64,000 nucleotides of DNA from an uncultured archaeon (GTDB lineage Archaea; Asgardarchaeota; Lokiarchaeia; Sigyniarchaeales; SOKP01): contig CAYSZJ010000004.1 of the NCBI GenBank assembly GCA_964435435.1, forward strand, positions 66 to 64,065. Direction: 5' to 3'. The notes below the pieces were generated by a model. The model saw only the letters and a list, made by a program, of their open reading frames with translations. It did not search any database and was not told the DNA's origin. A program made the translations under genes and the position numbers. Positions 26,061 through 46,965 of this stretch are shown piece after piece. Every line of letters starts with the position of its first letter. The stretch's first letter is position 1.

Positions 26061-26307
26061 TTTAGTTGATTAACAGTAGTTTTAACAATTTGAACTTTTA
26101 ATGAATAGATAAAAAATAGAAAGAATTTATTTTTTCTGATTAGGTTTTATAACTCTATTGTCAAACGAGTATTGGATTTTATTATCAGCTGATATGTTCC
26201 AATTCTTCTATTTTGTATTTAATTCTATACTTCCTTTAATTAAGCACTTAAATTTAAAATTATTTACATAGTGAAAAAGCTATGATAAGAATTTAATCAA
26301 ATTAATG

Positions 26308-26808: not shown

Positions 26809-26937
26809 TGTTTTTGATATTTAAGTCAAATAATAATATGATTATAAATTCAAAAGTATAATTTAAATGTAATTAAAACTCTATTATCAAATGTGAAAGT
26901 GTAAGGTTAGGTGCGTCAAATTCTTTTTAATATAATC

Positions 26938-30018: not shown

Positions 30019-30585
30019 TATTTAACACTTTTAAATTTTTTTGATAAGGATTTGCTTTCCACATCTTTTTTTCCGTTGAATAAAAATAAAAGAAATATAA
30101 TTATATAAATATTTTTATGAAAAATGATCGAGATCCAACATTTTCTGCTTTGGGGATGATCGAGTCCAAAAATCTATCACTTTGTTTTTTCATAATTAGT
30201 CATATTTTAAATCTTTTTTTGGTTTTTCTGGACATTTTGTTCGTTTATGTTAGTGATTTCTGGGTATGAGATCTAAATTAGTAACTTTTTTTGCGAGAGT
30301 GATGAATTTCAGTGAATTTGATTTTGTTTTTTGCCTTTTATCTGCATTATGTCTGTTGATAATAATTAGAAATGGAATAATGATCTATATCCAACATAAT
30401 GTTCATCAAAACTAGTGAAACTGATCAAAAATCATGTATTCCATGTAAATAATGGAAAAGGCATTTACATTTCAGTTAAAGAATTAGATGTGAAATATTG
30501 TTAAATTTTGTAAATAAGAAGAAAGAAAGGATTAATTCTCTAATTAATAATAAATTTAAAGATATTGATCTGTTAAAAGGAAATT

Positions 30586-30726
30586 TTAAGTTAGTCTTAA
30601 TAGACCTAATTCTTTAATTTGGTTTGTAAATTCTGATATAACTTCAGCAAATCTCTTCCCTTCAGAGGTACTTACCCATTCAAGTTTAAACCACTTTTCA
30701 AGATTATCCGGGTTTAACAAAATCAT
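30586..30726 (-). pseudogene. 3'-terminal remnant of an mvhD gene
   Basis: Translates as 'MILLNPDNLEKWFKLEWVSTSEGKRFAEVISEFTNQIKELGLLRLT*'. The intact MvhD C-terminus is 'RVRLEWVSASEGKRFAEVITEFTNQIKELGPFKP'. Nucleotide similarity to 21236..21330 is visible by eye. The whole Cys-containing N-terminal part is missing. Confidence 0.7.
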
Positions 30727-30793
30727 TGAAAAATAACCCCTAAAGGGAAAATTTGATATCTAATAATTATCTGATTTATTTCAAAGAAATTTT

Positions 30794-30823
30794 CATTGAA
30801 ATCAGACTCTGAATTTACCTTTC
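30794..30823. repeat. Direct repeat copy 1 (cattgaaatcagactctgaatttacctttc)
   Basis: 30/30 identical to 31745..31774. Extends to about 37 nt with one mismatch. Confidence 0.9.
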
Positions 30824-30951
30824 TGGAAAAACACAAACAGTATGAATTAGTCTAGAAATGTAAAAATAAAAAGTATATATTCCGGCACCACCCATTCTGT
30901 TTCGGTCGTTTTATTTTTAAGATATCCATTCTTAATTATATATTCAAGATT

Positions 30952-31572
30952 ATGAAGAGAATAGTCTTATTTTCAACACCCGATAATAACGACAATTTTC
31001 ATGAAATTTTGAATTTGATATTCCCTTCTGATATCAAAGACAAGCGTCCACTTTTCATGCCTTCACAAGACATACCAAATACCCCGCATAAATTTCTTGA
31101 TGATTGGAAGGGCTTTGCAAGGGGACACCACCTTAAAATTGACTTTATTGATAATTCTAAGATAGATGCAACGAGTGAAATAGAAAAACTCATGAAATCC
31201 AACATTTTAGTCATATCTGGGGGTGATCCTTTTCAATTATTAATCAATCTACGTAAATCGGGATTGGATAATGTAATTACACAATTCACAAAAAAGAAAG
31301 AATTCATCCTCGCAGGTTATAGTGCAGGAGCTTATATATTAACTCCAATATTAGACACCGCCAAAATTCTTAATGAGAATTATCCTGGTGGTAAGAAATG
31401 TAAGACTCAAGATAAACTTAAAGACTTCACGGGATTAGGTATTGTGGATTTTGAAATTATTGCACATTACTCTGAGACGCAACATAGAGAAATTTTCAAG
31501 AATTACATTGAAAATAATATAAGAAGTGTAAAAAATATTGCGGATGATGAGTTTTTAGTTATTGATTTTTGA
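30952..31572 (+). CDS. Peptidase S51 (peptidase E / type-1 glutamine-amidotransferase-like) family protein
   Basis: 206 aa. 'ILVISGGDPFQLLINL' and 'ILAGYSAGAYILTP' (nucleophile Ser context) are typical of peptidase E-like proteins. Confidence 0.7.
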   Translation: MKRIVLFSTPDNNDNFHEILNLIFPSDIKDKRPLFMPSQDIPNTPHKFLDDWKGFARGHHLKIDFIDNSKIDATSEIEKLMKSNILVISGGDPFQLLINLRKSGLDNVITQFTKKKEFILAGYSAGAYILTPILDTAKILNENYPGGKKCKTQDKLKDFTGLGIVDFEIIAHYSETQHREIFKNYIENNIRSVKNIADDEFLVIDF

Positions 31573-31744
31573 AGTATGAAAGAAGTATTAATTCAAGACA
31601 GTTTAAATTATTCTACTTTTTCCTAATGCGTCTAATTATCATTATGGTTGCAATGGACTTTTCTTATAAAAGTTTGCTCAATTCTTTGTAGCTTATTGTT
31701 AAGTCAAATGGTCTTTTCTTTTACGGAGTTTTTCCCTAAATTTC

Positions 31745-31774
31745 CATTGAAATCAGACTCTGAATTTACCTTTC
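31745..31774. repeat. Direct repeat copy 2 (cattgaaatcagactctgaatttacctttc)
   Basis: Identical to 30794..30823. Abuts the truncation point of the ABC ATPase remnant. Confidence 0.9.
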
Positions 31775-31775
31775 C

Positions 31776-31937
31776 ATCCTAATTTTCATTAAAGATCATG
31801 GTAAAATTATTGAAGAAGGAACTCATAATAATTTGTTATCACAAGGTGGTGAATATGCCACTCTCTACAACACTTATTTTAAACATCAAGAAATAAAAAT
31901 TTTTGAAGATCGTTTGGGTAAAGAACGAGTCGCATAG
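31776..31937 (+). pseudogene. 3'-terminal remnant of an ABC exporter ATP-binding protein gene
   Basis: Reads 'ILIFIKDHGKIIEEGTHNNLLSQGGEYATLYNTYFKHQ...*' (stop 31935..31937). This matches the usual ABC ATPase C-terminal pattern (..V.D.GKI.E.GTH.EL....G.Y..L...Q). There is no start codon and no Walker A, Walker B or signature motif upstream. Confidence 0.55.
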
Positions 31938-32105
31938 GATCGTATGAATTAAAAAATTAAAGATTTTTCCTCACTGGATGAATTAATAAGTGCCCCAACT
32001 TGGTAGGATTATTTTGATTATAGATGTAAACAGAATAAACAATTTTTAAAAGTTAAAGAATCATTCATTTGATGTATCCTTAAATCATTTAATAACATAA
32101 AATTT

Positions 32106-32858
32106 GTGATAAATTTAATGTCAGTAAAGGTTCTAAAAGATTATTATATCAAGAGAAAACCAAGATTGATGAAAGATTTCTCTAAAGACCTTGAACTTGC
32201 ACGGGATATACTTAAAAGAAAGTTTGAGGACGCTAAGGTCGACGAATTGTTTGCCCAAATGAAATCAGAATATGAAAAGATAATTCCTGAAATACCTTAT
32301 ATCGGTAGAAATAAAAATTATTTTAATACTATCCTAGTTGGTTGTATGTCCAGTCTCTCAATATTCCGAATCCTCGAAAAGGAAGGATTTACGCTTCGAG
32401 ATATCGGGGAATTTTATTATGAGCTCTGTGATATTAATAATACAATCTTTAAAAATGGTTTGGAAAAAAGTGGTAAAGATCCTGCTCACTATCCATTCGA
32501 ATTAGCCTACGTTGAGTTTAGGAAAAAACTCTGTGAAACATTAAATCAAAAAAACTATCCAGATGATTGGGTTGGGGACTTTGTTGAAGGTGATGGGAAA
32601 ACTTTTGAGTGGGGCTTTAATTTTTATGAGTGCGGAATTCATAAAGTCTTTAAGAGATTAGATGCTGAGAAGTATGTACCTTTTTTTTGTTTAGCTGACT
32701 TCTCTGCAGCAAACATTTTAGGATATGGATTCTCCCGCACCCAGACTCTAGGATTCGGAGCTCCAATGTGCGATCATAGGTATGTGAAAAACTATAATAC
32801 TCCCAAAGGATGGCCCCCAGATGACCTACCAGAATATAACAAAAGAGCAATACCATAA
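32106..32858 (+). CDS. L-2-amino-thiazoline-4-carboxylic acid hydrolase (ATC hydrolase)-like family protein
   Basis: 250 aa. C-terminal 'FFCLADFSAANILGYGFSRTQTLGFGAPMCDHRY' resembles the conserved Cys-containing C-terminus of this family. Assignment from memory. Confidence 0.5.
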   Translation: MINLMSVKVLKDYYIKRKPRLMKDFSKDLELARDILKRKFEDAKVDELFAQMKSEYEKIIPEIPYIGRNKNYFNTILVGCMSSLSIFRILEKEGFTLRDIGEFYYELCDINNTIFKNGLEKSGKDPAHYPFELAYVEFRKKLCETLNQKNYPDDWVGDFVEGDGKTFEWGFNFYECGIHKVFKRLDAEKYVPFFCLADFSAANILGYGFSRTQTLGFGAPMCDHRYVKNYNTPKGWPPDDLPEYNKRAIP

Positions 32859-33118
32859 AAAGACATACGGCTCGAACCGAATATACTTTAATAAAACAAG
32901 TATATAAAGATTAATCACGAAATTGTATATATTGATACTTTTAATTGTTTAATGGATAAAAAGAAATGACAGAGATAAATCAAATAATGAATAATATTAA
33001 GGAATCTTTTGAAAATATGCATAAAAATCCAAGGCAGTTAAAAAAAAGATCTATATAATTATTTTACTTTTATAGTTTCTTATCTCTTTTCTTCTTCTAG
33101 ATTTTTAAAAAAAAAATT

Positions 33119-33550
33119 TTAAGTTGCTTGTAATGGTCCTAATTTTTTAATTTTATTAGTAAATTCAGTTATTACTTCAGCAAATCGTTTTCCTTCAGAT
33201 GCACTTACCCATTCAAGTCTAAATCTTTTATCAAGATTAAACATTTTCAGAACTTCTTGAAAACGTTCAAATCTATCTCTCGCAAATTCATTTCCCTTTA
33301 AGTAGTGACAGTCACCAATATGACATCCTGTTACAATGACTCCATCAATGCCATCTTTAAATGCCTCTAAAATAAAAGCGGGGTCTACTCTACCAGAGCA
33401 CATCACCCTCACTATCCTAATAGTAGAGGGATATTGAAATCGTGAGACCCCAGCTAAATCTGCACCAGCATAACTACACCAATTACAACAAAAACACAAT
33501 ATATTTGGGTGAAAATCCTTTTTGCTTACTTTATTTTTTGACTTAGACAT
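33119..33550 (-). CDS. mvhD: MvhD-type [2Fe-2S] subunit, Cys form
   Basis: 143 aa. 'FCCNWCSYAGADLAGVSRFQYP', 'VMCSGRVDP', 'TGCHIGDCHY'. Starts 18 nt downstream of hdrA. Confidence 0.9.
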   Translation of the reverse strand: MSKSKNKVSKKDFHPNILCFCCNWCSYAGADLAGVSRFQYPSTIRIVRVMCSGRVDPAFILEAFKDGIDGVIVTGCHIGDCHYLKGNEFARDRFERFQEVLKMFNLDKRFRLEWVSASEGKRFAEVITEFTNKIKKLGPLQAT

Positions 33551-33568
33551 ATGTCAATACCTAATAAT

Positions 33569-36500
33569 TTAACTTTGGACTAATAGGGCAGAAATCATAG
33601 CGTTGATTTGCTCAAAACCAAAATGTTTAATAACTATTGTTGAATTAGGGCATTGCGCACCGCATGTGCCACAACCTTTACAAAGCGCAGGATTTACATG
33701 AGATTTTTTAATAGTAAATGTGATATCTTCAAACACTCGTTCTTCCTCTATTAATTCGATAGCATTAAATTGGCAGACTTCGATACAGCTTCCACAGCCA
33801 ATGCAATTTTCTTCTATTACAACAGCCACAAGCCCAGATGTTACAAGTTTTTCAGCGCTTAAAATTTTAACTGCTTGAGCAGCAGCTCCATTGGATTGTG
33901 CAATTGATTCTCGAAGATCTTTTGGTGAATGTGCACACCCACATAAATATATACCATCTGTTGCAAAATCAATTGGTCTCAATTTAACATGAGCTTCCAA
34001 AAAGAATTTGTCTTCATTAAGTGGAACTTTTAACATTTTTGCTAATTCTTCATTTTCTTTTATGGGTGCTACGAGACCGGTACTTAATACGATTAAATCA
34101 GGATTTATTTCAAGTTTTCCTAAATCTGGATTGTTTACTATTATTTTTAACTCTTTATTTTTAATTTTTAATTCTGGAGGTTTAGCTTCATCAAATCTAA
34201 CGAAGATAACCTTTTTATCTCGTGCTAAGTTATAATATTTTTCTTTAAAACCATACGTTCTAATATCACGATATAGAATCACTATTTCTATATTTGGATT
34301 TATTTCTTTTGCTTTTAACGCATTTTTAATAGCTTCTGAACAGCAGATTCTGCTACAATATGGGTGGTCTTCATTTCTGGATCCAATGCATTGAATCATA
34401 ACTATTGATTTCAATCCTTTTACTTTATCTGTAGTAAAAAGATCTTTTTCAAATTCAGTTTGGGTTATAATTCTTTGATCTTTCCCAAAATTATATTCCT
34501 TTGGTTGATATTCTTTTGCTCCTGTTGCTACAATTATTATTCCATGATCAAGATCAACACTTTTGTTATTATTTCCGTAGCTTACATTTGTGGAAAAATT
34601 TCCAATATATCCTGAAATTGAATTGATTTGAGCATTTTTAAATACTTGGATAAGTTGATTATCTTCAACACTTTTAATTAAATTTTTAAGATATTCCTGA
34701 ATATCATCATTTTCAAGGGTTCGATAAATATTTTTAGCAAATCCACCTAGAGAATCTTCCTTTTCAATTAAGAATACTTCAAAACCTTGAGAAGCTAGAT
34801 TTAATGCTGCTGACATTCCAGATACTCCCCCACCTATTATTAGACCTTTATTTATTACATTGATTTCTTGTTCCTGTAAGGGGATTAATTGTCTAGCCTT
34901 TGCTACTGACATTCTCAATAGATCTTTTGCTTTTGTTGTTGCATTTTCAGCTTCGTGCATATGAACCCATGAGCATTGATCTCGAATATTAACCATTTCA
35001 AAAAGGTATTTATTTAGACCAACTTCTCTTATGGTCGCTTGAAATAAAGGTTCATGAGTTCTTGGAGTGCAAGAGGCAACTATAACTCTATTAAGTTGAT
35101 TTTGTCTTATTTTTTCTTTAATATTAGTTTGAGTGTCAGCAGAACAAGTATATAGATTATGTTCCGCATAAACTACATCGGGTAAAGTCTTAACATATTC
35201 CACAACTTCAGGAACATTAACTACACCCCCGATATTTATCCCACAAAGACATATAAATACACCTATTCGTGGTGGTTGATCGCTTACATCTAATTCTTCA
35301 GGAAGTTCTTTTTTCGAGATTAATTTATTTCTTGCTTCTGACAGGAGAACATTCACGCGTCCTGCAGCTGCACTTGCTTCGATAACAGTTTCTGGAATAT
35401 CTTTAGGTGCTGCAAATGCTCCACAAACATAAATTCCAGGGTTTGAAGTCTCTACGGGAGTGAAAGTATCAGTTTTGCAAAAACCATATTCATTTAACTC
35501 GATATTTAATTTCTGTGCTAATTCTTTTGCTCTTTGATTAGGTTGCATTCCTACCGAAAGAACAATAAGGTTAAAAATTTCTTCAACAATTCTTCCATTT
35601 TCTGTCTCATAATAAACTTTCAAATCTTTAGAATCCGGGATCTCTTTAATAGAAGATATTCTACGTCTAATATATCTTACTCCATACTCTTTTCTTGCTC
35701 GTTCAATATATTTGTCAAAATTTTTACCGTATGCTCGGATATCCATCGTAAAAATGGTTGGTTCTACAATATCCATGTGTTCTTTAGCAATAACCGCTTC
35801 TTTTGTAGTATACATACAACAAACAGAAGAACAATAATCAATACCATGCTTTCTATCTCTTGAACCAATACATTGTAAAAATGCTATTTTTTTAGGAATA
35901 ATTCCATCAGAAGGGCGAAGTATTAAACCTGCGTGTGGGCCACTAGCGCTTAATATCCGTTCAAATTCAGTACTAGTGATTACATTTAAATATTTACCAT
36001 AACCAAGTTGAGTTAAAGGAGTTGGATCATACTCATCAAATCCAGTTGCCAGTATTACCGCTCCTACATTAAGCTGAACATTTTCATCTTGAAGTTCATA
36101 ATTTATTGCTTCGGCTTTACATATTCCTTCACAAACTCCACAACCTACACATTTGTCTTTATTAATTGAAAAAACTAAAGGAACAGCCTGAGGAAATTTC
36201 ACTGAGATTGCTGTTTTGTTTGAGAGCCCTTTATTAAAAGTGTCGATTGCTTCTATAGGGCATTTTTGAGCACATAATCCACAGCCTGTACATTTATTTT
36301 GATCCAAATAAAGTGTCTTTTGAGTTAAATCAACTATAAAATTTCCAGGTTCTCCTTCAATTTTTTCTATATTTGAGTTTATTAAAATATCGATATTTTC
36401 ATGACGACCAGTTTGTACTAATTTCGGAGCAAGAATGCATATAGCACAATCATTAGTTGGAAAAGTTTTGTCTAATTGAGACATTACTCCTCCTATACTT

Positions 36501-36610
36501 GTTGTGGATTCAGCTAGATAAACCTTATATCCTGAATCTGCTAAATCTATGGATGATTGAATACCAGCAATTCCGCCACCAATGACTAAAACAGCACCGA
36601 CTTTTTCCAT
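33569..36610 (-). CDS. hdrA: Long double-module HdrA-like flavoprotein, Cys form (most divergent long copy)
   Basis: 1013 aa with the same architecture as the other long copies: 'VIGGGIAGIQ', 'FPTNDCAICILAPK', 'CTGCGLCAQKCP', 'VFICLCGINIG', 'ASCTPRTHE', 'VNIRDQCSW', 'CIGCGSCIEVC', 'CKGCGTCGAQCP'. Confidence 0.9.
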   Translation of the reverse strand: MEKVGAVLVIGGGIAGIQSSIDLADSGYKVYLAESTTSIGGVMSQLDKTFPTNDCAICILAPKLVQTGRHENIDILINSNIEKIEGEPGNFIVDLTQKTLYLDQNKCTGCGLCAQKCPIEAIDTFNKGLSNKTAISVKFPQAVPLVFSINKDKCVGCGVCEGICKAEAINYELQDENVQLNVGAVILATGFDEYDPTPLTQLGYGKYLNVITSTEFERILSASGPHAGLILRPSDGIIPKKIAFLQCIGSRDRKHGIDYCSSVCCMYTTKEAVIAKEHMDIVEPTIFTMDIRAYGKNFDKYIERARKEYGVRYIRRRISSIKEIPDSKDLKVYYETENGRIVEEIFNLIVLSVGMQPNQRAKELAQKLNIELNEYGFCKTDTFTPVETSNPGIYVCGAFAAPKDIPETVIEASAAAGRVNVLLSEARNKLISKKELPEELDVSDQPPRIGVFICLCGINIGGVVNVPEVVEYVKTLPDVVYAEHNLYTCSADTQTNIKEKIRQNQLNRVIVASCTPRTHEPLFQATIREVGLNKYLFEMVNIRDQCSWVHMHEAENATTKAKDLLRMSVAKARQLIPLQEQEINVINKGLIIGGGVSGMSAALNLASQGFEVFLIEKEDSLGGFAKNIYRTLENDDIQEYLKNLIKSVEDNQLIQVFKNAQINSISGYIGNFSTNVSYGNNNKSVDLDHGIIIVATGAKEYQPKEYNFGKDQRIITQTEFEKDLFTTDKVKGLKSIVMIQCIGSRNEDHPYCSRICCSEAIKNALKAKEINPNIEIVILYRDIRTYGFKEKYYNLARDKKVIFVRFDEAKPPELKIKNKELKIIVNNPDLGKLEINPDLIVLSTGLVAPIKENEELAKMLKVPLNEDKFFLEAHVKLRPIDFATDGIYLCGCAHSPKDLRESIAQSNGAAAQAVKILSAEKLVTSGLVAVVIEENCIGCGSCIEVCQFNAIELIEEERVFEDITFTIKKSHVNPALCKGCGTCGAQCPNSTIVIKHFGFEQINAMISALLVQS

Positions 36611-37431
36611 TATTTCGCCTCCTTAATTGATATGAATGTGGGGATTTCTTCATATATTTTATCAAGATCAACTAATCCTCTTTGCCTTAAAGTGACAATA
36701 TGATTTAGTACTTTATATGGCTCTACTTGAATTTCTTTAGATATTTCTGGTACTGATTTACCCTTATCTTTAATTTTTAGTAATATTTTATGACGGATAA
36801 ATTCTTTATGTAAAGCATCATCAAGAATTTCTTCAAATTCTTCTTTTTGTATTTTCTCATTATAGACATTACCTTCTGTAGTAATTTGTCTTTCTCTGCT
36901 GACTAAGGTCCTAAGTCTAGAATCAGATAATACAGATTTAATCACATCAAAATCTTCAGATAATTGTTTTCTCAATTTCTTATTTTTTATTGGAGAGGGA
37001 CCTAGATTGATTATATGTTCATTAAATTCATTTACAATCTTGGCAAACCTATTACCCTCGGAAGCCGAGACCCAGTCTAGGCGAAAACGCTCAGAATACC
37101 CAACATAGTCTAGTAATTTACTAAGCATGTTCATTTTCATCTCTGCTTCATAATTGCCGGTCATATAATGACAATCTCCTGGGTGACAACCTAAAACGAG
37201 CACCCCATCAATATTTTTTAAAAAAGCTTCAGCTACAAAAAGAGGATCAACTCTCCCACTGCACATTACTCTTATAATTCTAATATTAGGAGAATATTGA
37301 ATTCTACTTACACCAGCAAGATCAGCTCCAGCATAAGAACACCAATTACATAAAAATCCTAAAATTTTTGGTTTAAATGCCAACTGTTTATTCTCCTCCA
37401 TAGGCAATAATTTCTGATAGAATTTGTTCAT
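36610..37431 (-). CDS. MvhD domain fused to a C-terminal winged-helix (wHTH) domain
   Basis: 273 aa. N-terminal 'FLCNWCSYAGADLAG', 'VMCSGRVDP' and 'LGCHPGDCHY' mark the MvhD domain. C-terminal 'IRHKILLKIKDKGKSVPEISKEIQVEPYKVLNHIVTLRQRGLVDL' is wHTH-like. The start may be the internal ATG at 37401. Its stop overlaps the next hdrA ATG (TAATG). Confidence 0.8.
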   Translation of the reverse strand: MNKFYQKLLPMEENKQLAFKPKILGFLCNWCSYAGADLAGVSRIQYSPNIRIIRVMCSGRVDPLFVAEAFLKNIDGVLVLGCHPGDCHYMTGNYEAEMKMNMLSKLLDYVGYSERFRLDWVSASEGNRFAKIVNEFNEHIINLGPSPIKNKKLRKQLSEDFDVIKSVLSDSRLRTLVSRERQITTEGNVYNEKIQKEEFEEILDDALHKEFIRHKILLKIKDKGKSVPEISKEIQVEPYKVLNHIVTLRQRGLVDLDKIYEEIPTFISIKEAK

Positions 37432-40400
37432 TTGTAAAATGATAAACTGTTATTGCATTTTCTGGACAGCTTGCACCACATACACCACATCCTTTACAAA
37501 GTAACTTGTTTATAACCACTTTATCCTCTTCATTCTTTGATATAGCGTTATAGGGACAAAGTTTTATACAAACTTTACATCCTACGCATAACTCGTTGTT
37601 CACTTCCGCTACTAAACCTGAGCCAATAATATCTTTTGAACTTAAAAATCTGCTTGCCCTTCCAGCAGCTCCATTTGCTTGAGTGATTGATTCTTGAATA
37701 TGTTTTGGCCAATGAGCACATCCACATAAGAAGACTCCGTCCGTAGCAAAATCTACTGGTCTCAGTTTAGCATGTGCTTCTAAGAAAAAACCATGCCTAT
37801 CTAAAGGTACTTTAAGCATTTTTGCCAATTCTTCTGAATTATCCGTAGGAATCATAGGAGGCGATAAAATAATTAAATCTGTTTCAAATGTGATAATATC
37901 CTGCAAATTCGTGTCAAATATTTTTATCCCGTATTTTTCAGGTTTATTGCTTATTTTCGTGATTTCTGGTGGTTTATTTAAATCATATCTTAGAAGTATA
38001 GCATCTCCTCTTCGATCAAAAAGATATTCTTCAAATTCTTTTTTGGCCATTTGAAAATCTCTATAAAGAACAATCATTTCGAGATCAGGCTTTAATTGTT
38101 TTAAGATATTCAAATTTTTAATAGCAGTTGCACAACATATATTCGAACAGTATGTAATTCCTTCTTTTTCTCTCGCATTTATGCATAAAATTGTTGTAAC
38201 ACGCTTAGTACTATCAAACCAAGAGTGGTCTCTTTGATTCAATCGTTTTTCTAGTTCCAATTCTGTAATAACATTGTTATTTTTATCACCATATTGATCG
38301 AATCTTATAGGTTTTAATTCTTGACCTCCAGTAGCAACGATAATAACACCAACTTTCAGTTCACTAACTTCATTTTTGGAGTCAATAATAGAGACATCAA
38401 AATTGCCAATATATCCTTTTACATCTTTTACTCTAGACTCTAAGCAAACTTGAATTTTTTCATTTTTCTTAACATTTTCTTTTATCTCTTTTAAAAATTT
38501 TGAAGCATCTTCTTGAGTTGGATATAAAAGGTATAAATCATTCAAAATTCCTCCAAGAATCTTCTCTTTTTCTACAAGATAGACTGTATATCCTTGGTTA
38601 GCAATATTCAAGGCTGCAGTCATTCCAGATATACCGCCACCAATTATTAATGCCTTTGGTATAACTGATAATTTTTGTTCTTGTTGTGATCTCAATAATC
38701 TAGATTTCGCAACAGTCATTTCAATTAAATCTATAGCCTTCTCGGTAGCAAGCTCCTTTTCTGTCATATGAACCCAAGAACACTGATCACGAATATTTGC
38801 CATTTCAAAAAGGTACTTGTTTAATCCTGCTTCTTGGCAAGTTTCTTGAAATAAGGATTCATGCGTTCTTGGTGTGCAAGATGCCACAATAAATCTATTT
38901 AAATTATATTCATCAATTACTTCCTTAATTCTTGCTTGAGAATCACTAGAACAGGAATATAAATTATCTTCACAAAAAACGACATTAGGCAATGATTTTA
39001 TATGTTCTACAACTTGAGGTATATCAATATATTTTCCGATATTAATTCCACAATGACAGATAAGTACGCCAATTCTAGGTTCTTCTGTTATATCGACTTC
39101 TTTTTCTGGTATATCAAATACTTTTTCTTTTACTTGGGTATATTTTGCGGAACTGAGTAAAGCTGCCACTTGTGAAGCGACTCCACTGGCATCAGCTACA
39201 GTTTCTGGTATGTCCATTGGACCTTGACAAAATCCAGCCAAGAAGACACCCTTTTTCGAAGATATTGATTTAGTAAAATGATTTTTTTCCTTAAAGAAAT
39301 TATAATCATCTAAGTTAATATCTAAAATATTTGCTAATTCTTTGGTTCCGCTAGAAGAAACTAGAGGTGTAGCTAATACAACTAAATTTGCTCGAAAATT
39401 ATTAAGTAATCCAGATTGTAAATCTTCATAATGAATAATCAAATCTTTTGTCTCAGGATCCTCTATGATTTTACTAATTTTAGTATGGAAATATTTTACT
39501 CCATATTCTTCTTGAGCTCTTTGAGTAAATTCATAGAAGTTTTTCCCATATGCCCTAATATCGTGTCTAAAAACAAAACATTTGGAATTTTCTGAGTGTT
39601 CTTTTGTGATAATTGCTTCTTTAGCAGCATACATGCAGCATACGCTTGAACAGTAAGGAACTCTTTGTTGCAGATCTCTTGAACCCGCACATTGAATAAA
39701 GGCAATATTATCTGGTTCTTGTTTATCACTTGGGCGTAGAACGTGTCCGCCAAATGGTCCAGATGCACATAAAATTCTCTCATATTCTAAACCATTTACC
39801 ACGTTCTCATAATTATAACCCCATCTAGAGGTTAATTCCTCTCCAAACATATCAAATCCAGTTGCTACTACAATTGCTCCGACATTTAATTCGATTTCTT
39901 GATGTTTTTGTTCGAAATCTATTGCTTCCGCGCTACAAACTTTTTGACATACTCCGCATACATCTTTAGTCAATTTTAGACACATATTAGGATCAATTAA
40001 ATAGATAGGAGGTACTGCTTGAGGAAATGGGATATACACAGATTTCCTTTTACCTAGATTCATATCAAAAATATTTGGGGCTTCGATCTTTGGACATTTA
40101 GTAGCACAATCACCACATCCTTTGCAAAGATCTTCATTTATATAACGAGGTTTTTTAAGGACGGTTACTTTAAAATCTCCTGGTTTTCCTTCAACTTTTT
40201 GGACTTCATGATAAGTCATTAGTTCAATATTGGGATTACGAAATACTTCAACCATTTTTGGCGCTAAAATGCATAAACTACAATCTAAAGTAGGAAAGGT
40301 TTTATCTAGTTGAGCCATTCTACCCCCAATTGAAGGTGTTTTTTCTACTAAGTAAACTTTAAAACCCAATTCAGTTAAATCTAAAGAAGTCTGTATCCCT

Positions 40401-40438
40401 GCTATTCCCCCTCCAATGACACACACAGATCCCTCCAT
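37388..40438 (-). CDS. hdrA: Long double-module HdrA-like flavoprotein, Cys form
   Basis: 1016 aa, colinear with 21670..24780 and 26938..30018. Its ATG overlaps the stop of the upstream hdrD-like gene by 1 nt. Confidence 0.9.
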   Translation of the reverse strand: MEGSVCVIGGGIAGIQTSLDLTELGFKVYLVEKTPSIGGRMAQLDKTFPTLDCSLCILAPKMVEVFRNPNIELMTYHEVQKVEGKPGDFKVTVLKKPRYINEDLCKGCGDCATKCPKIEAPNIFDMNLGKRKSVYIPFPQAVPPIYLIDPNMCLKLTKDVCGVCQKVCSAEAIDFEQKHQEIELNVGAIVVATGFDMFGEELTSRWGYNYENVVNGLEYERILCASGPFGGHVLRPSDKQEPDNIAFIQCAGSRDLQQRVPYCSSVCCMYAAKEAIITKEHSENSKCFVFRHDIRAYGKNFYEFTQRAQEEYGVKYFHTKISKIIEDPETKDLIIHYEDLQSGLLNNFRANLVVLATPLVSSSGTKELANILDINLDDYNFFKEKNHFTKSISSKKGVFLAGFCQGPMDIPETVADASGVASQVAALLSSAKYTQVKEKVFDIPEKEVDITEEPRIGVLICHCGINIGKYIDIPQVVEHIKSLPNVVFCEDNLYSCSSDSQARIKEVIDEYNLNRFIVASCTPRTHESLFQETCQEAGLNKYLFEMANIRDQCSWVHMTEKELATEKAIDLIEMTVAKSRLLRSQQEQKLSVIPKALIIGGGISGMTAALNIANQGYTVYLVEKEKILGGILNDLYLLYPTQEDASKFLKEIKENVKKNEKIQVCLESRVKDVKGYIGNFDVSIIDSKNEVSELKVGVIIVATGGQELKPIRFDQYGDKNNNVITELELEKRLNQRDHSWFDSTKRVTTILCINAREKEGITYCSNICCATAIKNLNILKQLKPDLEMIVLYRDFQMAKKEFEEYLFDRRGDAILLRYDLNKPPEITKISNKPEKYGIKIFDTNLQDIITFETDLIILSPPMIPTDNSEELAKMLKVPLDRHGFFLEAHAKLRPVDFATDGVFLCGCAHWPKHIQESITQANGAAGRASRFLSSKDIIGSGLVAEVNNELCVGCKVCIKLCPYNAISKNEEDKVVINKLLCKGCGVCGASCPENAITVYHFTNEQILSEIIAYGGE

Positions 40439-41718
40439 TATTCTTTAACCTCTACTTTTTTATCAGGATCTATTACATTTATCATATCAACCAAAAATTC
40501 TGAGAAATCCATTATTTCTATTGAAGTGAAATCATCATAATCTTTTTTTAGGCAAGTTAAGTGTATACGGCATTTTGGACATGACGTTATCATTTTTGTT
40601 CCAACAGTTTTAGCTTCTGAAAGACGTTTATATCGTAAAGCTTTGGATCTCTCATTACAATTCATCCAAGAATTAACTCCACAACAATAGGAATTTTCTT
40701 TATTATGCTCCATTTCCTTAAATTCGTAACCTAATCTTTCTAAATGATGAAATATGTCTCGAACTTTTTCAATTATATTATTTTCTTTCGGTAAATATCT
40801 ACTTAATCTACAAGGATCGTGATAAGTAAAAGGAATAATTTCGCTAGATTCATTTGGATTCTTAAATTCAATCTTACCTTGCTTCCAATTATCAAAAATG
40901 TATTCAATTATATGTTTAACTTCAAATTTATCATTAAAATCTTCAAATAAATTTGGATAGTCAATTTTAAATGTTCTATAACATTCAGCACAAGCAGTTA
41001 TTATTGTAGAAATCCCTGCTTTTTCAAAATTATTTAAATTTTTCTTTGCTAATTCAATAAACACTTCGAATTTTCCTTGACCCCAATATAAATCATGACC
41101 ACAGCATGTCTCCTCTTTAAGAACTACTATTGGTTCGTTCTCAATTTGGCAAATTATTTTCAGGCTGCTTTCTGCTATAGAATCTGAATTTTCAAATTCA
41201 AAATTAAAAAAGGGTAAACATCCAACATAAAATAAAATATTTCCTTTCTCTGAAATTTTACAATCTTTAGGAACCCAATCTAAAGGTCTTTCAATTTCAA
41301 TATTATTTTGACTCATTATTTCTGACATCATAGGATAAATGCCTTTATGAGCAATAGAACGATCAACATTTTGAATGTCTTTCATCCTCATTTTATATCT
41401 AGCAATTCGTACAATATCAGCAAAATTTATATCTTTGGGACACATCTGAAGGCAACTATTGCACATTAAACAGTCCCATAATAACCCACTCTTAATTACA
41501 TCATCTTCAAAACCTTCTAATATCATCTGAATAATTCTGCTAGGTGTAAATTTTTGAACTTTACTAATTTGACATACACCTGAGCAACGAGCACATTGAT
41601 AACATTTTTTCAATAAGTTTCTTAGATCTGGCTCGTATATTTTTCTTAAAAAATAATCAGTATCATTAGTATTTTGTTTTATTTTCTTATTTCTTTCTGT
41701 TTCTGTTATGCAACTCAC
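40438..41718 (-). CDS. HdrD-like protein (HdrC-type ferredoxin + double CCG domain), paralogue of 24780..26060
   Basis: 426 aa. 'CYQCARCSGVC', 'CLMCNSCLQMCP', 'FYVGCLPFF...CCGHDLYW', 'YHDPCRLSR...CCGVNSW'. Confidence 0.85.
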   Translation of the reverse strand: MSCITETERNKKIKQNTNDTDYFLRKIYEPDLRNLLKKCYQCARCSGVCQISKVQKFTPSRIIQMILEGFEDDVIKSGLLWDCLMCNSCLQMCPKDINFADIVRIARYKMRMKDIQNVDRSIAHKGIYPMMSEIMSQNNIEIERPLDWVPKDCKISEKGNILFYVGCLPFFNFEFENSDSIAESSLKIICQIENEPIVVLKEETCCGHDLYWGQGKFEVFIELAKKNLNNFEKAGISTIITACAECYRTFKIDYPNLFEDFNDKFEVKHIIEYIFDNWKQGKIEFKNPNESSEIIPFTYHDPCRLSRYLPKENNIIEKVRDIFHHLERLGYEFKEMEHNKENSYCCGVNSWMNCNERSKALRYKRLSEAKTVGTKMITSCPKCRIHLTCLKKDYDDFTSIEIMDFSEFLVDMINVIDPDKKVEVKE

Positions 41719-41722
41719 ACCC

Positions 41723-42835
41723 TTATTTTAAACTATCCATAAATTTTTCTTTTCGTCTTATTTTTAACTGAGAAAATTTAGAAATTAACTCTTTCATATT
41801 GTTTTTAGTTATAGTATCATGTTCTAAGCATTTAATTGCTTTAGCGTCTAATACTTTATGAAGTAATTGTTTACCTTTTTCAGTGCGAGGAATTACAGTT
41901 GTATATCTATCTGGTGAGCTAAGACCCCCAAATGAAATATCTGAATAAACATTAGTAAAATCACTACAAGAATGACAAGCGGGACGGATGTAATTACCTA
42001 ATTTTTCAAAGGAAATATGGATTATTTTTTCTTTCGAGCTTTTGTCTTCTAACTTTAAAATTAGATCCTCTTTAATATTTATCTTTTTAATATTTTCAAA
42101 TTTTATCTTAAAATCTTTTTCAAATATCTCTATTTGAGATTTATCAAATAGAAAATTATGGTAGCAAAATAACCCTAAACAAATTTCAATATATTCTGAA
42201 GGGGTAACACCCAAATTTTGCATACATCTAATTGTATAAATTTGACAAGGCGTTCCTACTATTGCTAATTTTTTAAATTTAAAATGGTTAAATTTTGGAA
42301 TTGAGCGCGTATAAGTGCAAAATCTTTGAATCTCGTCTAGTTGTGAAGTTATTTCCAGCTTTGTCCCGGAAGCTTTAAATAATTCATCCTTATTATCTGC
42401 GAACATAGATTCCCTAGAAAATGGAGCATCAAATTTTGATACTATTGCTCCATCAATTATTTTATTTTCTAATAAGTAATTTATTATTGTATTTACTATA
42501 CCTCCATCAGTTCCAATTTTTAAAAATTCAGGATCATTAGTTTGGCAAGAATAAATATCTTCAAAATTACCAAGGGGCATGGAGGCAAAATTTGTAAATT
42601 GATAAGTTTTATTAAGATCTTCATCCAAAACATGAGTTTGAGGGCAAATATAATAACATATACCACATTCAAGGCATTCCTCCTTATTTATATATTCCGG
42701 AGGTGAAAAGGGCTCTTTAAAGCCGATTACATTTTCAAATGTTGCTGAACAGAAAGAAGTGCATCCCCCACATTCTTGACAAATACCTTTTTCATGGACT
42801 TCCTTAATTAAATCTTGAAATGTTTTTGAACTCAT
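41723..42835 (-). CDS. FrhB/FdhB-family flavo-iron-sulfur protein with N-terminal 2x[4Fe-4S] ferredoxin
   Basis: 'CQECGGCTSFC' and 'CLECGICYYICP' are ferredoxin motifs. 'DGGIVNTIINYLLENKIIDGAIV' is the FrhB N-domain and 'IVGTPCQIYTIR' the FrhB C-domain. The start is set at the internal ATG 42835, which avoids a 53-nt overlap; the track ORF begins at 42904. Confidence 0.8.
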   Translation of the reverse strand: MSSKTFQDLIKEVHEKGICQECGGCTSFCSATFENVIGFKEPFSPPEYINKEECLECGICYYICPQTHVLDEDLNKTYQFTNFASMPLGNFEDIYSCQTNDPEFLKIGTDGGIVNTIINYLLENKIIDGAIVSKFDAPFSRESMFADNKDELFKASGTKLEITSQLDEIQRFCTYTRSIPKFNHFKFKKLAIVGTPCQIYTIRCMQNLGVTPSEYIEICLGLFCYHNFLFDKSQIEIFEKDFKIKFENIKKINIKEDLILKLEDKSSKEKIIHISFEKLGNYIRPACHSCSDFTNVYSDISFGGLSSPDRYTTVIPRTEKGKQLLHKVLDAKAIKCLEHDTITKNNMKELISKFSQLKIRRKEKFMDSLK

Positions 42836-42851
42836 GATAATAATTTTATTT

Positions 42852-44348
42852 TTATTCTTTTTCCAGTTTAATTGGTTTGCAATTTTTTCTTTTAGTACCA
42901 GCAATCCTTTCTAATAAGGGTTGTCCTGGTTTAACATCTTTTAAACTTTTTGATTCTATTATCCCTGCTTTAATTGCCTCTTTATAGATTTTTTCACCTT
43001 TTTTATTTCGCGTAATTACTGTAGACCATCCACTAGGTGAGCCAATTGAACCAATGCTGATATCAGCATAATCACATGTTAGATCTTCGCAAAAATGACA
43101 GTTATGGCGTGCATATGATTTAACGTCGTTTAAGGGTACTCTTAAATCCTCCCCCGAATCTAAGTATATAATGAATTTACCCCCACTTATATCCATTTTT
43201 GTTACTTTATTAAAATCTTTATCAAATTGTTCTTTAATTAAGTTAAGTATGCCCTCATAGGGAAATGATTCCATGCAAAAAAGCCCAATTCTATATTTAA
43301 TATTCTTGAAAAATGGTAAACCACTTGGAAATAAATATCCTTTCTCTAAAGCATTCATCATACAAGGAACACCTACAACCGCGATATTTTCATACTTTTT
43401 TGATTGATCTATTATGCTTAATGTTGAGGCGTTAGCGTATTTTGTGCCACCAGTCTTATATAAATCTTTAATATCTTCTACTATAATTGGCTCTGGTTTC
43501 CATAATTCCTTTGAATGTTTTACTGCTACAATTGCATTAACTAATTTATTTTTAAGTAAGTATTCAAGTAAAGAAGTGACAATCCCTCCATCTTGTCGTA
43601 CTTTTTTAATCTCATCCTTAGTTGTTGTAGCAGAATAACTATTAATATAACCATTAATTTTTTCTGAAAATTTTAAAGATTTATCAAGTTTATTTATACT
43701 TTTACCTGCTTGTTCAATTGAAAATGATCTCGGGCAAACAGAATAACATAACCCGCATTTCATACAAGCATCATTATCGATCTCTAATGTATCTGCTGTG
43801 ACTGTAATAGCATTTACAGGGCAAATTGATGAGCACCACCCACACTGACAACATACTTCAGAATCAAATACAATAGAAACGGGTTCAAAAAAATGTTCAA
43901 TGAAACCACCAAGTATATCTTTAACTTGATATCTATAGAAACGTTCTTCTTCCTCGACTTCTTTTTCTTCTCCCTTTACTTTCTTGATAACAGTTTTAGT
44001 TTTTATTTCAACACGTTCTTCAACATATCCTTGTTCTTTAAGGTAAATAACATCACGAATTACGTTTTCTGGAGGAAATTCTTTTATAATTTTGGCAATT
44101 TCCTCTAAAAATAACGGTTTCTTACCTTTTAATCCTTCTAACACTAATTTACGCTCTGTTTCAGCATCGACCATAGCATCTAGAATTTCATAAAATTTCT
44201 CCTCAGAATATTTACCAATTTTCGAAATATCTTCTTTTGCTTCGAAAAACGCTCTAATTTGAAAGTTTTCGACTGCTTTATAGGTAGCATCCATTAAATT
44301 CTTTGGAGATATCCCATCAAAATTAATATCTTTTACAATTTGAACCAT
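42852..44348 (-). CDS. FrhB/FdhB-family protein with ~150-aa N-terminal extension containing a wHTH-like segment
   Basis: 498 aa. 'CCQCGWCSSICP' and 'CMKCGLCYSVCP' are ferredoxin motifs. Also 'DGGIVTSLLEYLLKNKLVNAIV' and 'VVGVPCMMNALEKG'. N-terminal 'LVLEGLKGKKPLFLEEIAKIIKEFPPENVIRDVIYLKEQGYVEE' is wHTH-like. Confidence 0.8.
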   Translation of the reverse strand: MVQIVKDINFDGISPKNLMDATYKAVENFQIRAFFEAKEDISKIGKYSEEKFYEILDAMVDAETERKLVLEGLKGKKPLFLEEIAKIIKEFPPENVIRDVIYLKEQGYVEERVEIKTKTVIKKVKGEEKEVEEEERFYRYQVKDILGGFIEHFFEPVSIVFDSEVCCQCGWCSSICPVNAITVTADTLEIDNDACMKCGLCYSVCPRSFSIEQAGKSINKLDKSLKFSEKINGYINSYSATTTKDEIKKVRQDGGIVTSLLEYLLKNKLVNAIVAVKHSKELWKPEPIIVEDIKDLYKTGGTKYANASTLSIIDQSKKYENIAVVGVPCMMNALEKGYLFPSGLPFFKNIKYRIGLFCMESFPYEGILNLIKEQFDKDFNKVTKMDISGGKFIIYLDSGEDLRVPLNDVKSYARHNCHFCEDLTCDYADISIGSIGSPSGWSTVITRNKKGEKIYKEAIKAGIIESKSLKDVKPGQPLLERIAGTKRKNCKPIKLEKE

Positions 44349-44399: not shown

Positions 44400-44455
44400 G
44401 AATACTAATTTAAAACCCCTTCCTTCGCAAGGTGAGTCCTCTTATAACTAATATT
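44400..44455 (-). promoter_or_regulatory. Candidate SECIS-type RNA hairpin in the 3' region after Sec-type vhuD
   Basis: This is the only GC-rich island in the only sizeable (119-nt) gap of the nine-gene block. The minus-strand RNA AAUAUUAGUUAUAAGAGGACUCACCUUGCGAAGGAAGGGGUUUUAAAUUAGUAUUC folds by hand into a long imperfect hairpin. The apical stem is CCUU/AAGG with loop GCG, followed by an A/AA internal loop, then CUC/GGG, then an A-U/G.U lower stem. Confidence 0.35.
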
Positions 44456-44467
44456 TTTTTATAAGAA

Positions 44468-44929
44468 TCATTCTACAGGGGTAGTTATAACTTGTTTTGT
44501 TTCAACTTTCGTCTCTTTGTTTATTAGGTTAAGTGGATTTAGCCCAGCTTTTCTTACCTTTTCTAAAGCATCTTCCACACTTCTTACAAATTTCTCACTT
44601 TCTGCGCCACTGAGCCAATACATATTGATTCTTTGATTTCCGAATCCTCTAGATTCTAAGATTCTATTTGCTAATTCAACGTGTCTTTCAGCTGTGAAAT
44701 TACCATTTTTAAATTGACATTCATTAGGTCGTCAACCAACAATCATAACACCATCAGCTCCCGCGCGAATACTATATAAGATGTGCTTAATATCAATTCT
44801 ACCAGTACATCTTACTTTGATAATTTTTATAGCAGGTGTATATTTCAATCGAGAAACTCCGGCTAAATCAGCTGCACTATATCCTCACTTTAAGCAAGCA
44901 AAAACAATTATACTATATGTATTTTCCAT
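44468..44929 (-). CDS. vhuD: VhuD-type MvhD homologue with two in-frame UGA (selenocysteine) codons
   Basis: Hand translation of the minus strand gives 153 aa: 'MENTYSIIVFACLKUGYSAADLAGVSRLKY...VRCTGRIDIK...GADGVMIVGURPNECQF...'. UGA at 44885..44887 aligns with the 2nd Cys of CNWC. UGA at 44732..44734 aligns with the Cys of GCHxGDC. A GGAGGUGG Shine-Dalgarno-like sequence lies about 12 nt upstream of the ATG. This gene is not in the ORF track because of the UGAs. Confidence 0.85.
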
Positions 44930-44935
44930 GTCTGT

Positions 44936-46921
44936 TTAACCACCTCCTAAAAGACCATCAATTTCAGCAAATAATTGATGATCTCGATAGTATCTTATAT
45001 CAATAGCTTGTGTAGGACAGCATGTAGCACATATACCACATCCATCACAATTTATCTCATCAACAAACGCTCCGATATCTACCTCAATCCTTATGGCATT
45101 TTTTGGGCACTCCTGTTCACATCGTCTACACGAAATGCAAAATTCACTATCAACCTCGGCAGTTATCAGTTCAATATCAATTTCTCCAGGCGCTGTTAGT
45201 TCAGCTACTTTACTAGCTGCAGCTCTAGCTTGAGAAACGGAATAAGAAATATTTTTTGGTCCCTGCGCAAATCCAGCTATAAAAATGCCTTTTGACTTTG
45301 TTTCTTGTGGCATTAGCCCAAAGTGTGATTCTGTAAGAAACCCGTATGTGTTAGTATCAAGATTTAAAACTTGAGCAATTTGCTGTGTACCTTTTGAAGG
45401 AAGTGCTGCTGTGGATAGAACGACTAAATCAGCATCAATTTTTACAATCTTATCTGTGAGAGATGAATATACGCGAACTTTCACATTTTTTGTTTCAGGA
45501 TCTTCAGAGATCTCACCAACTTTTCCACGAATCATTCTAATGCCTGCATCTTTAGCTCGTTCATAGTACTCTTCAAATCCTTTTTCAGGAGTTCTTATGT
45601 CAATATAACATATTGTAATATTTGCATCTGGAAATTCCTCTAAGAGTAATCTTCCATTTTTTAGAGCAAGCATACAACAAACACCACTACAATAAGTTCG
45701 TTCAGTTTCTCGGCTTCCTACACATTGTATAAATACAATTTCTTTAGGTTTCTTATTATCTGAAATTCGGTGCACATAGCCTTCAAGTGGCCCATTTGGG
45801 GCTAATATTCGTTCTAACTGAGGTTGAGTTATAACATTTTCAAACTCTCCATATCCATATTCACCAAAAGGTTCATAAATATCCCATCCAGTTGCTATAA
45901 TAATCGTTCCAACATCAATATTAACTTCTTTTGATTCTTGACTAAAATCAATAGCATCTAATTCACAGGAATCTACACAGGAGAAACATTCAACACAAAC
46001 ATTTCTATCTATATCATATAAAAATGGTACTGCTTGACCAAATGGTATATCAATTGCTTTTCGTGCCCCTAAATGTTCATCGAAATAATTTGTCGTATAA
46101 ACTGGACAGACTTCAGCACATGCTCCACATCCATTACATTCGTCTGTAGTAAATCGTGGTTTCCTTTCAATTATTACGTTGTAATTACCAACATACCCTT
46201 CTATATTCTTTACTTCGCTATAACTTAATAATTCAATATTTTCGTTTCTATTGACCTCTAACATTTTTGGACCGCAAATTCATATGGCACAGTCATCTGT
46301 AGGAAATGTTCTGTCCAATTGAGACATTCTCCCTCCTATCGTAGTTTTTTGATCAACTAAATATACCTTGATGCCTTGATTCGCAAGATCTAGAGCTGCA
46401 TTCATCCCGCCAATCCCACCTCCTACTACCAATGTAGCTTTTGTAACAGGAACAGTCTTAATAGGAACTGGCTCTAATCGTTTAGCTCTTTCAATACCGC
46501 TTTTCACTAGGATTTTTGCTTTTTCTGTAGCCTCTTCTTTACTATCTGTGCACCAAGAGCAATGTTCTCTCACATTTTGGCTACAAGAGTCATTCTATAT
46601 TAATACTCTTATATTTACCATTTGAAAATAATATGGATTTAAATCCGTTTTAGCAATTGTACCCCTATAAATAACCTCATGAGTACGAGGAGTTCAAGCA
46701 GAAGCTACAATTCTGTTTAAATTCTTCTCTTTTATATCTTCAATTATTTCGTTTTGAGCATTATCAGTTCAAAGAAATGGGTTCTTCTTTGATATTAATA
46801 TCTCATCTCCAAATTCATTTTTCACGAAATCAGTTAGTTCATCACAATCTACTTTAGTTCTTATATTTACACCTCATTGACAAGCATAGTATCCAATCCG
46901 ATGATTTTCAGTATTACTCAT
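44936..46921 (-). CDS. hdrA: Canonical-length HdrA with four in-frame UGA (selenocysteine) codons and one in-frame UAG inside a 39-nt insertion
   Basis: One frame runs from ATG 46921 to TAA 44936..44938 (46921, 46573 and 46264 are congruent mod 3). The UGAs are at 46874..46876 (CHCG->CQUG), 46769..46771 (YSCS->FLUT), 46694..46696 (ASCTPRTHE->ASAUTPRTHE) and 46280..46282 (DCSLCILAPK->DCAIUICGPK). The downstream 442 aa hold the FAD, inserted-ferredoxin and C-terminal ferredoxin domains. A GAGGUGGA sequence lies about 14 nt upstream of the ATG. Confidence 0.8.
46568..46606 (-). other. 39-nt paralogue-specific in-frame insertion (contains UAG 46595..46597) within Sec-type hdrA; flanked by identical AGA codons, 5' part folds into a 9-bp hairpin
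   Basis: The alignment reads ...MVNIR[VLI*NDSCSQNVR]EHCSW..., against ...VNIRDQCSW... in all four long paralogues. Hairpin arms 46605..46613 and 46582..46590 pair as UAUAAGAGU/ACUCUUGUA. Confidence 0.75.
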
Positions 46922-46949
46922 CTATTTTTACACATCCACCTCATTTTTT

Positions 46950-46965
46950 TATACAAGATTGTATA
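46950..46965. promoter_or_regulatory. Inverted repeat TATACAA-GA-TTGTATA 29-44 nt upstream of the Sec-type hdrA start codon (possible operator/promoter element)
   Basis: 7-nt arms read directly from the sequence. Position fits a promoter-proximal site. No transcription start data. Confidence 0.3.

Follow-up and report, generated by a model that had tools for sequence, protein, structure and literature searches.

A selenocysteine-type hdrA-vhuD pair with six in-frame UGA codons in a Lokiarchaeial contig, and a putative mini-intron in its hdrA gene

On the minus strand of a 64,000-nucleotide (nt) stretch of contig CAYSZJ010000004.1 (hereafter the window; G+C ~30%), a gene for a heterodisulfide-reductase-type protein, hdrA, is followed closely by a vhuD gene. 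Between them the two frames contain six internal UGA codons and one UAG, and the list of open reading frames (ORFs) splits the region into 44936..46264 and 46280..46573. How can such a locus be read? We find that hdrA-vhuD is very probably a Lokiarchaeial (Promethearchaeota) two-gene message in which all six internal UGAs are decoded as selenocysteine (Sec), and its predicted products are a heterodisulfide-reductase-type flavoprotein and an MvhD-like iron-sulfur partner. Sec recoding is strongly supported by conservation among orthologues, a Sec/Cys codon swap, purifying selection and a covarying Sec insertion sequence (SECIS) of the type termed lokiSECIS. The same four lines of evidence support the core of the original prediction for this locus, which had proposed a Sec-recoded hdrA-vhuD pair and a context-dependent reading of UGA.

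The hdrA gene (46921→44936, minus strand, as for all features of the pair) is a complete HdrA frame with four in-frame TGA codons and one TAG, starting with the ATG at 46921 and stopping at a TAA (44936..44938). Its product aligned end to end with solved HdrA proteins (phmmer, nearly full length; E=7e-193 for 9sfi_A, 1.5e-184 for 5odc_A) and has the HdrA domain set, namely the N-terminal Fe-S domain, the thioredoxin-reductase-like flavin adenine dinucleotide (FAD) domain, the inserted ferredoxin domain and, at the C terminus, a second ferredoxin domain. The vhuD gene (44929→44468) encodes a 153-residue (aa) [2Fe-2S] subunit of the MvhD/FlpD family, assigned by alignment and by its match to 9sfi_K (E=2e-36), and stops at a UGA (44468..44470). 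Both genes are in the same frame and are separated by UAA ACA GAC; the 6-nt spacer after the stop codon is also the commonest hdrA-vhuD spacing among the orthologues. In one orthologous locus (L022), a TGA at the hdrA end is in frame with vhuD, so that recoding there would yield an HdrA-Sec-VhuD fusion. When re-read from the sequence, the coordinates originally given for both genes, all TGA codons and the ORF fragments were all reproduced.

We compared the six UGAs with Methanococcus and structurally characterised HdrA and VhuD proteins, and all fell in Cys or Sec columns. UGA 1 (46874..46876; predicted Sec16, ACQ-U-G) corresponds to the second Cys of an invariant CxC in the HdrA N-terminal domain, UGA 2 (46769..46771; Sec51, FL-U-T) to an invariant (Y/F)xC and UGA 3 (46694..46696; Sec76, ASA-U-TPRTHE) to an invariant AAC. 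UGA 4 (46280..46282; Sec201 of the spliced protein described below, DCAI-U-ICGPK) is at the canonical HdrA Sec site, which is Sec197 in Methanococcus maripaludis and Cys205 in Methanothermobacter marburgensis (PMC13518236, PMC13580544). In vhuD, UGA 5 (44885..44887; Sec15, CLK-U-GY) and UGA 6 (44732..44734; Sec66, G-U-RPNEC) fall in the columns of Cys16 and Cys67 of M. marburgensis MvhD (PMC13580544). Cys67 of that protein adjoins His68 and Asp71, and the alignment places Arg and Glu there in the window VhuD. The original prediction had placed each UGA at a Cys invariant in the paralogues nearby, and our alignment agrees: all six columns are Cys in the four HdrA or three MvhD paralogues of the window, and the HdrA columns are also Cys in PDB 5odc_A. 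The best solved relative of both proteins is PDB 9sfi, the M. maripaludis Hdr-Vhu-Fwd complex, whose deposited sequences show X (Sec) in the columns of three of the window UGAs, namely UGA 4 in HdrA and UGA 5 and UGA 6 in VhuD. One Sec in HdrA and two in VhuD is also the count that the original prediction gave for Methanococcales.

The codons at these positions are conserved well beyond the window. Scanning one genome per species gave 80 orthologous loci that are 78-95% identical and, with few exceptions, carry the label Promethearchaeota (Lokiarchaeia). Codons could be counted at 71 loci with a readable N-terminus for hdrA and at 77 loci for vhuD. UGA 1, UGA 3 and UGA 4 are each TGA in 71/71 orthologues, and UGA 5 and UGA 6 are each TGA in 77/77. 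UGA 2 is TGA in 54/71 and TGC or TGT (Cys) in the other 17/71, an alternation that reads as a classical Sec/Cys exchange. Conservation of the six UGAs is far beyond chance. Decay in the orthologues would appear as UGAs at non-conserved positions together with frameshifts; we find the contrary, with the TGA positions recurring in about 71-77 species-level genomes and no frameshifts. Purifying selection is evident in the stretch that the UGAs interrupt: over the 198 codons upstream of UGA 4, the 71 orthologues show 5132 synonymous versus 2374 non-synonymous codon differences, and because of this ratio we conclude that the hdrA frame is translated across its UGAs. When the 442-aa fragment that follows UGA 4 was used in a protein search, >3000 relatives were returned, most of the closest being exactly 442 aa long; a few, called under code 4, are full-length at 646-660 aa with W exactly at the four HdrA positions.

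A candidate for the recoding signal lies at the very end of vhuD. The lokiSECIS (44437..44471) consists of AUGA, a 9-bp stem UUCUUAUAA/UUAUAAGAG, an A-rich 11-nt loop AAAAAUAUUAG and then GA, and it matches the element described by Mariotti et al. 2016 (PMC4989117); the UGA of its AUGA is the vhuD stop codon. The motif had a single match on both strands of the 64 kb, compared to 0.04 expected from shuffles. Wherever vhuD was located in an orthologous locus (about 70 loci), the element was found at the vhuD stop codon or just beyond it. Among 53 distinct orthologous versions, 94.5% of the stem cells are paired, seven of the nine stem pairs have changed on both sides, and 0/500 shuffles reached any of five covariation measures. 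Shifting the partner by 1-3 columns, as a control, brought pairing down to 41-62%. The minimum free energy (MFE) fold of the region yields the same hairpin. Counted from the AUGA, the six UGAs lie 263, 416, 1811, 2225, 2300 and 2405 nt upstream, and this span agrees with the published reach of one lokiSECIS, which acts on as many as six UGAs within about 2 kb and whose AUGA can double as a stop codon (PMC4989117).

We propose that this single eukaryote-like hairpin directly 3' of vhuD would recruit the Sec-specific elongation factor (EFSec) with Sec-tRNA(Sec) and act across both cistrons, on UGAs at upstream distances between 263 and about 2400 nt. The terminal UGA of vhuD, being inside the SECIS core, would be too close for recoding and would terminate; hdrA ends in UAA. 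The hdrA transcript would probably lose a 39-nt, UAG-carrying bulge-helix-bulge (BHB) intron ahead of translation. We infer from the sequence that Sec is actually inserted, that the transcript is polycistronic and that the host has Sec machinery. Several results weigh against this scheme. No tRNA-Sec, EFSec, PSTK, SepSecS or SPS was found within the 64-kb window: ARAGORN detected no tRNA there, hence no tRNA-Sec, and Pfam scans of 30 window ORFs returned no Sec machinery. Rfam reported no SECIS family, either at gathering thresholds for the whole window or in a permissive search around the lokiSECIS, and the folding energy of the lokiSECIS region is no better than that of shuffles. Because the folding energy alone is unremarkable, the case for the lokiSECIS rests on its motif, position and covariation. 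Finally, the UAG in hdrA requires a second explanation.

The UAG (46595..46597) lies inside a 39-nt insert (46576..46614) that is absent from most orthologues and that a BHB scan, folding and a shuffle test point to as a putative BHB intron. It would divide hdrA into two exons. Exon 1 (46615..46921), placed by translation and alignment to 5odc_A and 9sfi_A with its 3' boundary set by the BHB scan together with the alignment of orthologues, would hold most of the N-terminal Fe-S domain with Sec codons 1-3 and end in ...AUGGUAA, within an Asn codon. Exon 2 (44936..46575), from translation and the phmmer match to 9sfi_A (residues 7-659), would hold the end of the N-terminal domain, the thioredoxin-reductase-like FAD domain and the inserted and C-terminal ferredoxin domains. 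The predicted structure has an outer helix UUUUCAAA/UGUGAGAG of 8 positions with one mismatch, a 4-bp central helix UGGU/GCCA, two AA/A bulges (the slash marking the cut), and a 9-bp inner helix UAUAAGAGU/ACUCUUGUA with a loop of 14 nt. Archaeal tRNA introns are cleaved after the second bulge nucleotide. The same cut on each side here would take out 46576..46614 and leave AUG GUA AAU GUG AGA GAA, with a predicted splice junction of AUGGUAA/AUGUGAGAG, that is, ...UUUCAAAUGGUAA/AUGUGAGAGAAC... Excision would restore QMVNVREHCSW, which most orthologues read uninterrupted. The ORF-restoring pair of boundaries has the best BHB score among all pairs in a 140-nt region, and only 42/200000 shuffles of the insert score as well at allowed boundaries. 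The 5' bulge and both the central and the inner helix also appear in the unconstrained MFE fold (z=-2.83).

In closely related genomes, hdrA carries five more BHB-type inserts (30-39 nt), spread over four sites in its first ~330 nt. The insert of L003 (CAZBNW010000091.1) is at the window's site; it agrees with the window's insert at 26/26 stem positions and differs from it at 8/14 loop positions, and its stop is a UAA elsewhere in the loop. Between the window and L003, hdrA has 170 synonymous and 42 non-synonymous codon differences, and because this ratio equals that of insert-free comparisons, hdrA appears to have stayed functional with the insert. In L007 (NJBH01000004.1) and L016 (JBHLNF010000006.1), inserts of 35 and 34 nt lie 17 nt further downstream and would shift the frame unless removed; their central helices, UUGC/GCAA versus UUGU/ACAA, differ by a compensatory change. 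L007 and L002 (JAUVXW010000006.1) each have one further 30-nt BHB insert near UGA 1, that of L007 directly before the first Sec codon. A metagenome scan for further intron-bearing hdrA alleles used a gapped pattern that was too loose, and 0/120 of its matches were hdrA. The window's own insert is also present in a public scaffold (ENA ERZ23499107, ZHAO22-1_SAMN13740709_METAG-scaffold_107, L081, 61.8 kb), which differs from the window by one mismatch in 4329 nt (~47488, upstream of hdrA) and possibly represents the same data. The UAG insert is probably an mRNA intron cut by the tRNA-splicing endonuclease, and closely related Lokiarchaeia may have acquired BHB mini-introns at four or more positions in Sec-type hdrA. 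In the literature we found BHB introns of protein-coding genes for crenarchaeal cbf5 only, along with abundant non-canonical tRNA introns in Asgard archaea, and our searches returned no report of BHB introns in Asgard protein-coding genes. The hdrA inserts may therefore be the first reported there, as far as the literature was searched.

Among the alternatives, the one that survives best is that the Sec pair is real in the lineage and the window copy is dead, its insert being disruptive and not removed. This is unlikely, though it has evidence in its favor. The UAG is in frame, most orthologues lack the insert, and none of the best 120 listed relatives of the 97-aa fragment that follows the insert is itself 97 aa long; all are 100-118 aa, as insert-free alleles would be. 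Furthermore, BHB-like motifs are common in AT-rich DNA: a scan of the whole window gave 63 matches compared to about 37 expected and was uninformative, and an ORF-merging filter on that scan was too noisy to inform. Since such motifs are common by chance, the case for a BHB intron rests on ORF restoration, structure conservation and continued selection. These are the points that speak against a dead copy. The canonical BHB falls exactly at the ORF-restoring boundaries, the L003 insert has kept every stem position and changed much of its loop, and the 170 synonymous versus 42 non-synonymous differences between two insert-bearing genomes indicate a gene that was functional after insertion. The near-identical scaffold_107, with the reservation that it may be the same data, carries the insert as well.

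Alternatively, translation could stop at the UAG to release a free 108-aa N-terminal domain with three Sec residues and restart at the GUG at 46573, giving a split HdrA. The ORF finder does call a GTG-initiated frame (46280..46573) right after the insert, and the order of HdrA domains varies among the window paralogues. However, no Shine-Dalgarno-like sequence precedes this GUG, whereas one is predicted ahead of each annotated start: GAGGTGGA (46935..46942) upstream of hdrA, and AGGAGGUGG (44940..44948), within the hdrA 3' end, upstream of vhuD. A split would also cut the conserved NVREHCSW motif and leave the BHB structure unexplained, and the L007 and L016 inserts shift the frame and create no restart. 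We thus consider a split HdrA very unlikely.

Two further alternatives concern the UGAs themselves, and we give neither much credence. If they were ordinary stops in decaying pseudogenes, fragmentation of the region by standard gene calling and the presence of Cys-type HdrA and MvhD genes close by would be understandable, but identical, frameshift-free TGA positions across so many species, purifying selection across the UGAs and a conserved SECIS would not; this possibility is negligible. A genome-wide reassignment of UGA (to Trp or Gly, for instance), or its readthrough by a near-cognate tRNA, is just as far-fetched. In its favor, the code-4 gene calls noted above translate these UGAs as W. 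Against such reassignment, TGA ends 6/45 long ORFs of the window, in agreement with the original prediction and including both examples that it named (1095..1097 and 31570..31572). The in-frame UGAs match Cys columns only, one of these sites swaps with TGY, and PDB 9sfi has Sec modelled in three of these columns. Pyrrolysine at the UAG can be set aside, even though PMC9723677 reports some Asgard lineages with both Sec and pyrrolysine, because this UAG belongs to an insert that most orthologues lack and is not at a conserved family position, the homologous L003 insert has a UAA at a different position, and no pyl genes were found within the window.

Returning to the preferred reading, in which all six UGAs encode Sec, we looked at where the three N-terminal Sec residues of HdrA would lie. 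Structure papers place a [4Fe-4S] cluster (HA3/A3) in the HdrA N-terminal domain (PMC13518236, PMC13580544). In five solved HdrA proteins (5odc, 9sfi, 8rvu, 8rvv and 7bkb), only four Cys of this domain are invariant, those of CxC, (Y/F)xC and AAC, and Sec occupies three of these four positions in the window protein. Because the domain holds a [4Fe-4S] cluster and no other Cys in it is invariant, these four are its presumptive ligands; ligand identity is judged here by conservation only, and we did not find literature text naming the Cys ligands of this cluster. Selenolate ligation of the N-terminal [4Fe-4S] cluster by three Sec residues is thus plausible. The original prediction had suggested such a largely selenolate-ligated cluster, and its placement of three Sec at presumptive ligand positions holds for three of the four invariant Cys; the Cys of EHC, which it had also listed, is Asp or Asn in 4/5 solved HdrA proteins. 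Ligation itself is a prediction from these positions, and the Lokiarchaeial subfamily has extra conserved Cys (VDC, EHCSWC) that could serve as substitute ligands. Mariotti et al. also stated that the extra HdrA Sec positions are not cluster ligands (PMC4989117), a statement that predates the first HdrA PDB entry (5odc) and was made when only four clusters were counted in HdrA. At the canonical site, Sec197 of M. maripaludis HdrA appears to form a Cys-Sec bridge (PMC13518236). Taken jointly, that the hdrA transcript must lose a 39-nt BHB mini-intron and that the shuttle [4Fe-4S] cluster is held by one Cys and three Sec, we judge the chances to be evenly balanced.

If the shuttle cluster does have one Cys and three Sec ligands, Sec would sit at homologous positions in the two MvhD-fold modules docking at the bifurcating flavin. 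With the structures solved after 2016, the extra Sec residues can be placed on the mobile shuttle cluster's presumptive ligands and on the Cys residues described as lying between the clusters and this flavin. This placement gives a concrete, testable hypothesis on why HdrA-VhuD accumulates Sec.

The surroundings of the pair are rich in related genes. An Hdr-type cluster occupies 21231..44348 (minus) and 60700..62190 (plus) and includes four HdrA proteins of ~1000 aa, three MvhD proteins (one with a long C-terminal extension), two HdrD-like proteins with CCG and ferredoxin domains, and three FrhB/FdhB-like proteins, two of whose genes lie directly downstream of the lokiSECIS. The CCG and ferredoxin proteins, at 40438..41718 and 24780..26060, are candidates for HdrB/HdrC-type partners. 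The Cys-type HdrA paralogues have two thioredoxin-reductase modules in ~1000 aa and a permuted domain order, and identity between the Sec proteins and their Cys-type neighbours is 35-42% (35-38% for the MvhD paralogues). They are thus predicted to be different enzymes and not Cys versions of the Sec HdrA. The suggested analogy to the Vhu/Vhc switch between Sec and Cys isoenzymes is therefore not supported for these double-HdrA neighbours; by the same identities and domain order, none of the window paralogues is a close Cys relative of the same architecture that could replace the Sec form. Elsewhere, an uninterrupted ORF with no in-frame UGA (9201..11288, plus) encodes a 695-aa molybdopterin oxidoreductase with formate-dehydrogenase-like domains.

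Two observations on hdrA stand apart from these questions. The leader at 46922..46950 (minus; GAGGTGGATGTGTAAAAATAG ahead of the ATG) is nearly identical across many orthologues, with an upstream translation of '...EVDV*K', and this conservation exceeds the need of a ribosome-binding site alone. One orthologue (L017, JBHLNW010000102.1) has a fifth in-frame TGA in the C-terminal ferredoxin motif of hdrA (NCDG-U-GICATCC). This codon is absent from the window hdrA and appears to match the C-terminal Sec position given for HdrA.2 in Mariotti 2016 (PMC4989117).

The idea of an Asgard origin for the eukaryotic SECIS has the Sec HdrA-VhuD pair as its textbook example, and one more copy adds nothing new by itself. 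Only the ligand mapping and the putative mini-introns, both of them predictions, go beyond the literature. If the BHB inserts are spliced, Lokiarchaeia would hold recently gained introns in a protein-coding gene, which bears on ideas about how introns originated among archaeal relatives of eukaryotes and would be of practical importance for gene calling in Lokiarchaeial genomes.

The closest known system is the Lokiarchaeum HdrA-VhuD of Mariotti et al. 2016 (Mol Biol Evol, PMC4989117), a paper that the original prediction had cited correctly. Because that work describes the exact arrangement, the window pair is a rediscovery, another genome's copy of an arrangement that is already known. The Sec trait was reported there in Lokiarchaeota, with as many as four Sec in HdrA, the canonical site near residue 200 always among them, and two in a VhuD of about 150 aa. 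Its hdrA genes end in UAA or UAG, and a lokiSECIS made of AUGA, a 9-bp stem whose 11-nt loop opens with A's, and GA lies downstream of vhuD only and is shared with hdrA. The window pair has the same tandem order with a minimal gap, in-frame UGAs on conserved Cys including the canonical site (four in HdrA), two Sec (U15 and U66) in its VhuD, a single lokiSECIS after vhuD, a UAA at the hdrA end and an AUGA that provides the vhuD stop. Nothing essential differs; the window copy adds the BHB insert and Sec positions mapped to HdrA structures solved later. A 2024 survey likewise counted 1439 Asgard selenoproteins, with HdrA and FrhD/VhuD the most abundant, and found the Sec trait in 55.5% of sequenced Asgard genomes (PMC11227280).

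For the insert, the closest parallel is the BHB intron in crenarchaeal cbf5 pre-mRNA (PMC2738675). It too is a short insert in a protein-coding gene, with a helix, a 3-nt bulge, a 4-bp helix, a second 3-nt bulge and a helix, whose exact excision restores a conserved protein and whose occurrence among relatives is patchy. In contrast, hdrA is another gene in another phylum, with at least four insertion sites in about 330 nt, and its splicing is predicted. The M. maripaludis HdrA-VhuD (9sfi) has in common with the window proteins the domain architecture, the canonical HdrA Sec, both VhuD Sec residues and adjoining genes. However, it has a single HdrA Sec, its three N-terminal positions being Cys, and the euryarchaeal SECIS is of a different type. 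Recoding of several UGAs by a remote 3' kink-turn-type SECIS is also found in Selenoprotein P and other multi-Sec selenoproteins of eukaryotes. These are monocistronic, and Selenoprotein P has two SECIS elements (PMC4989117), whereas in the window one element would serve two cistrons.

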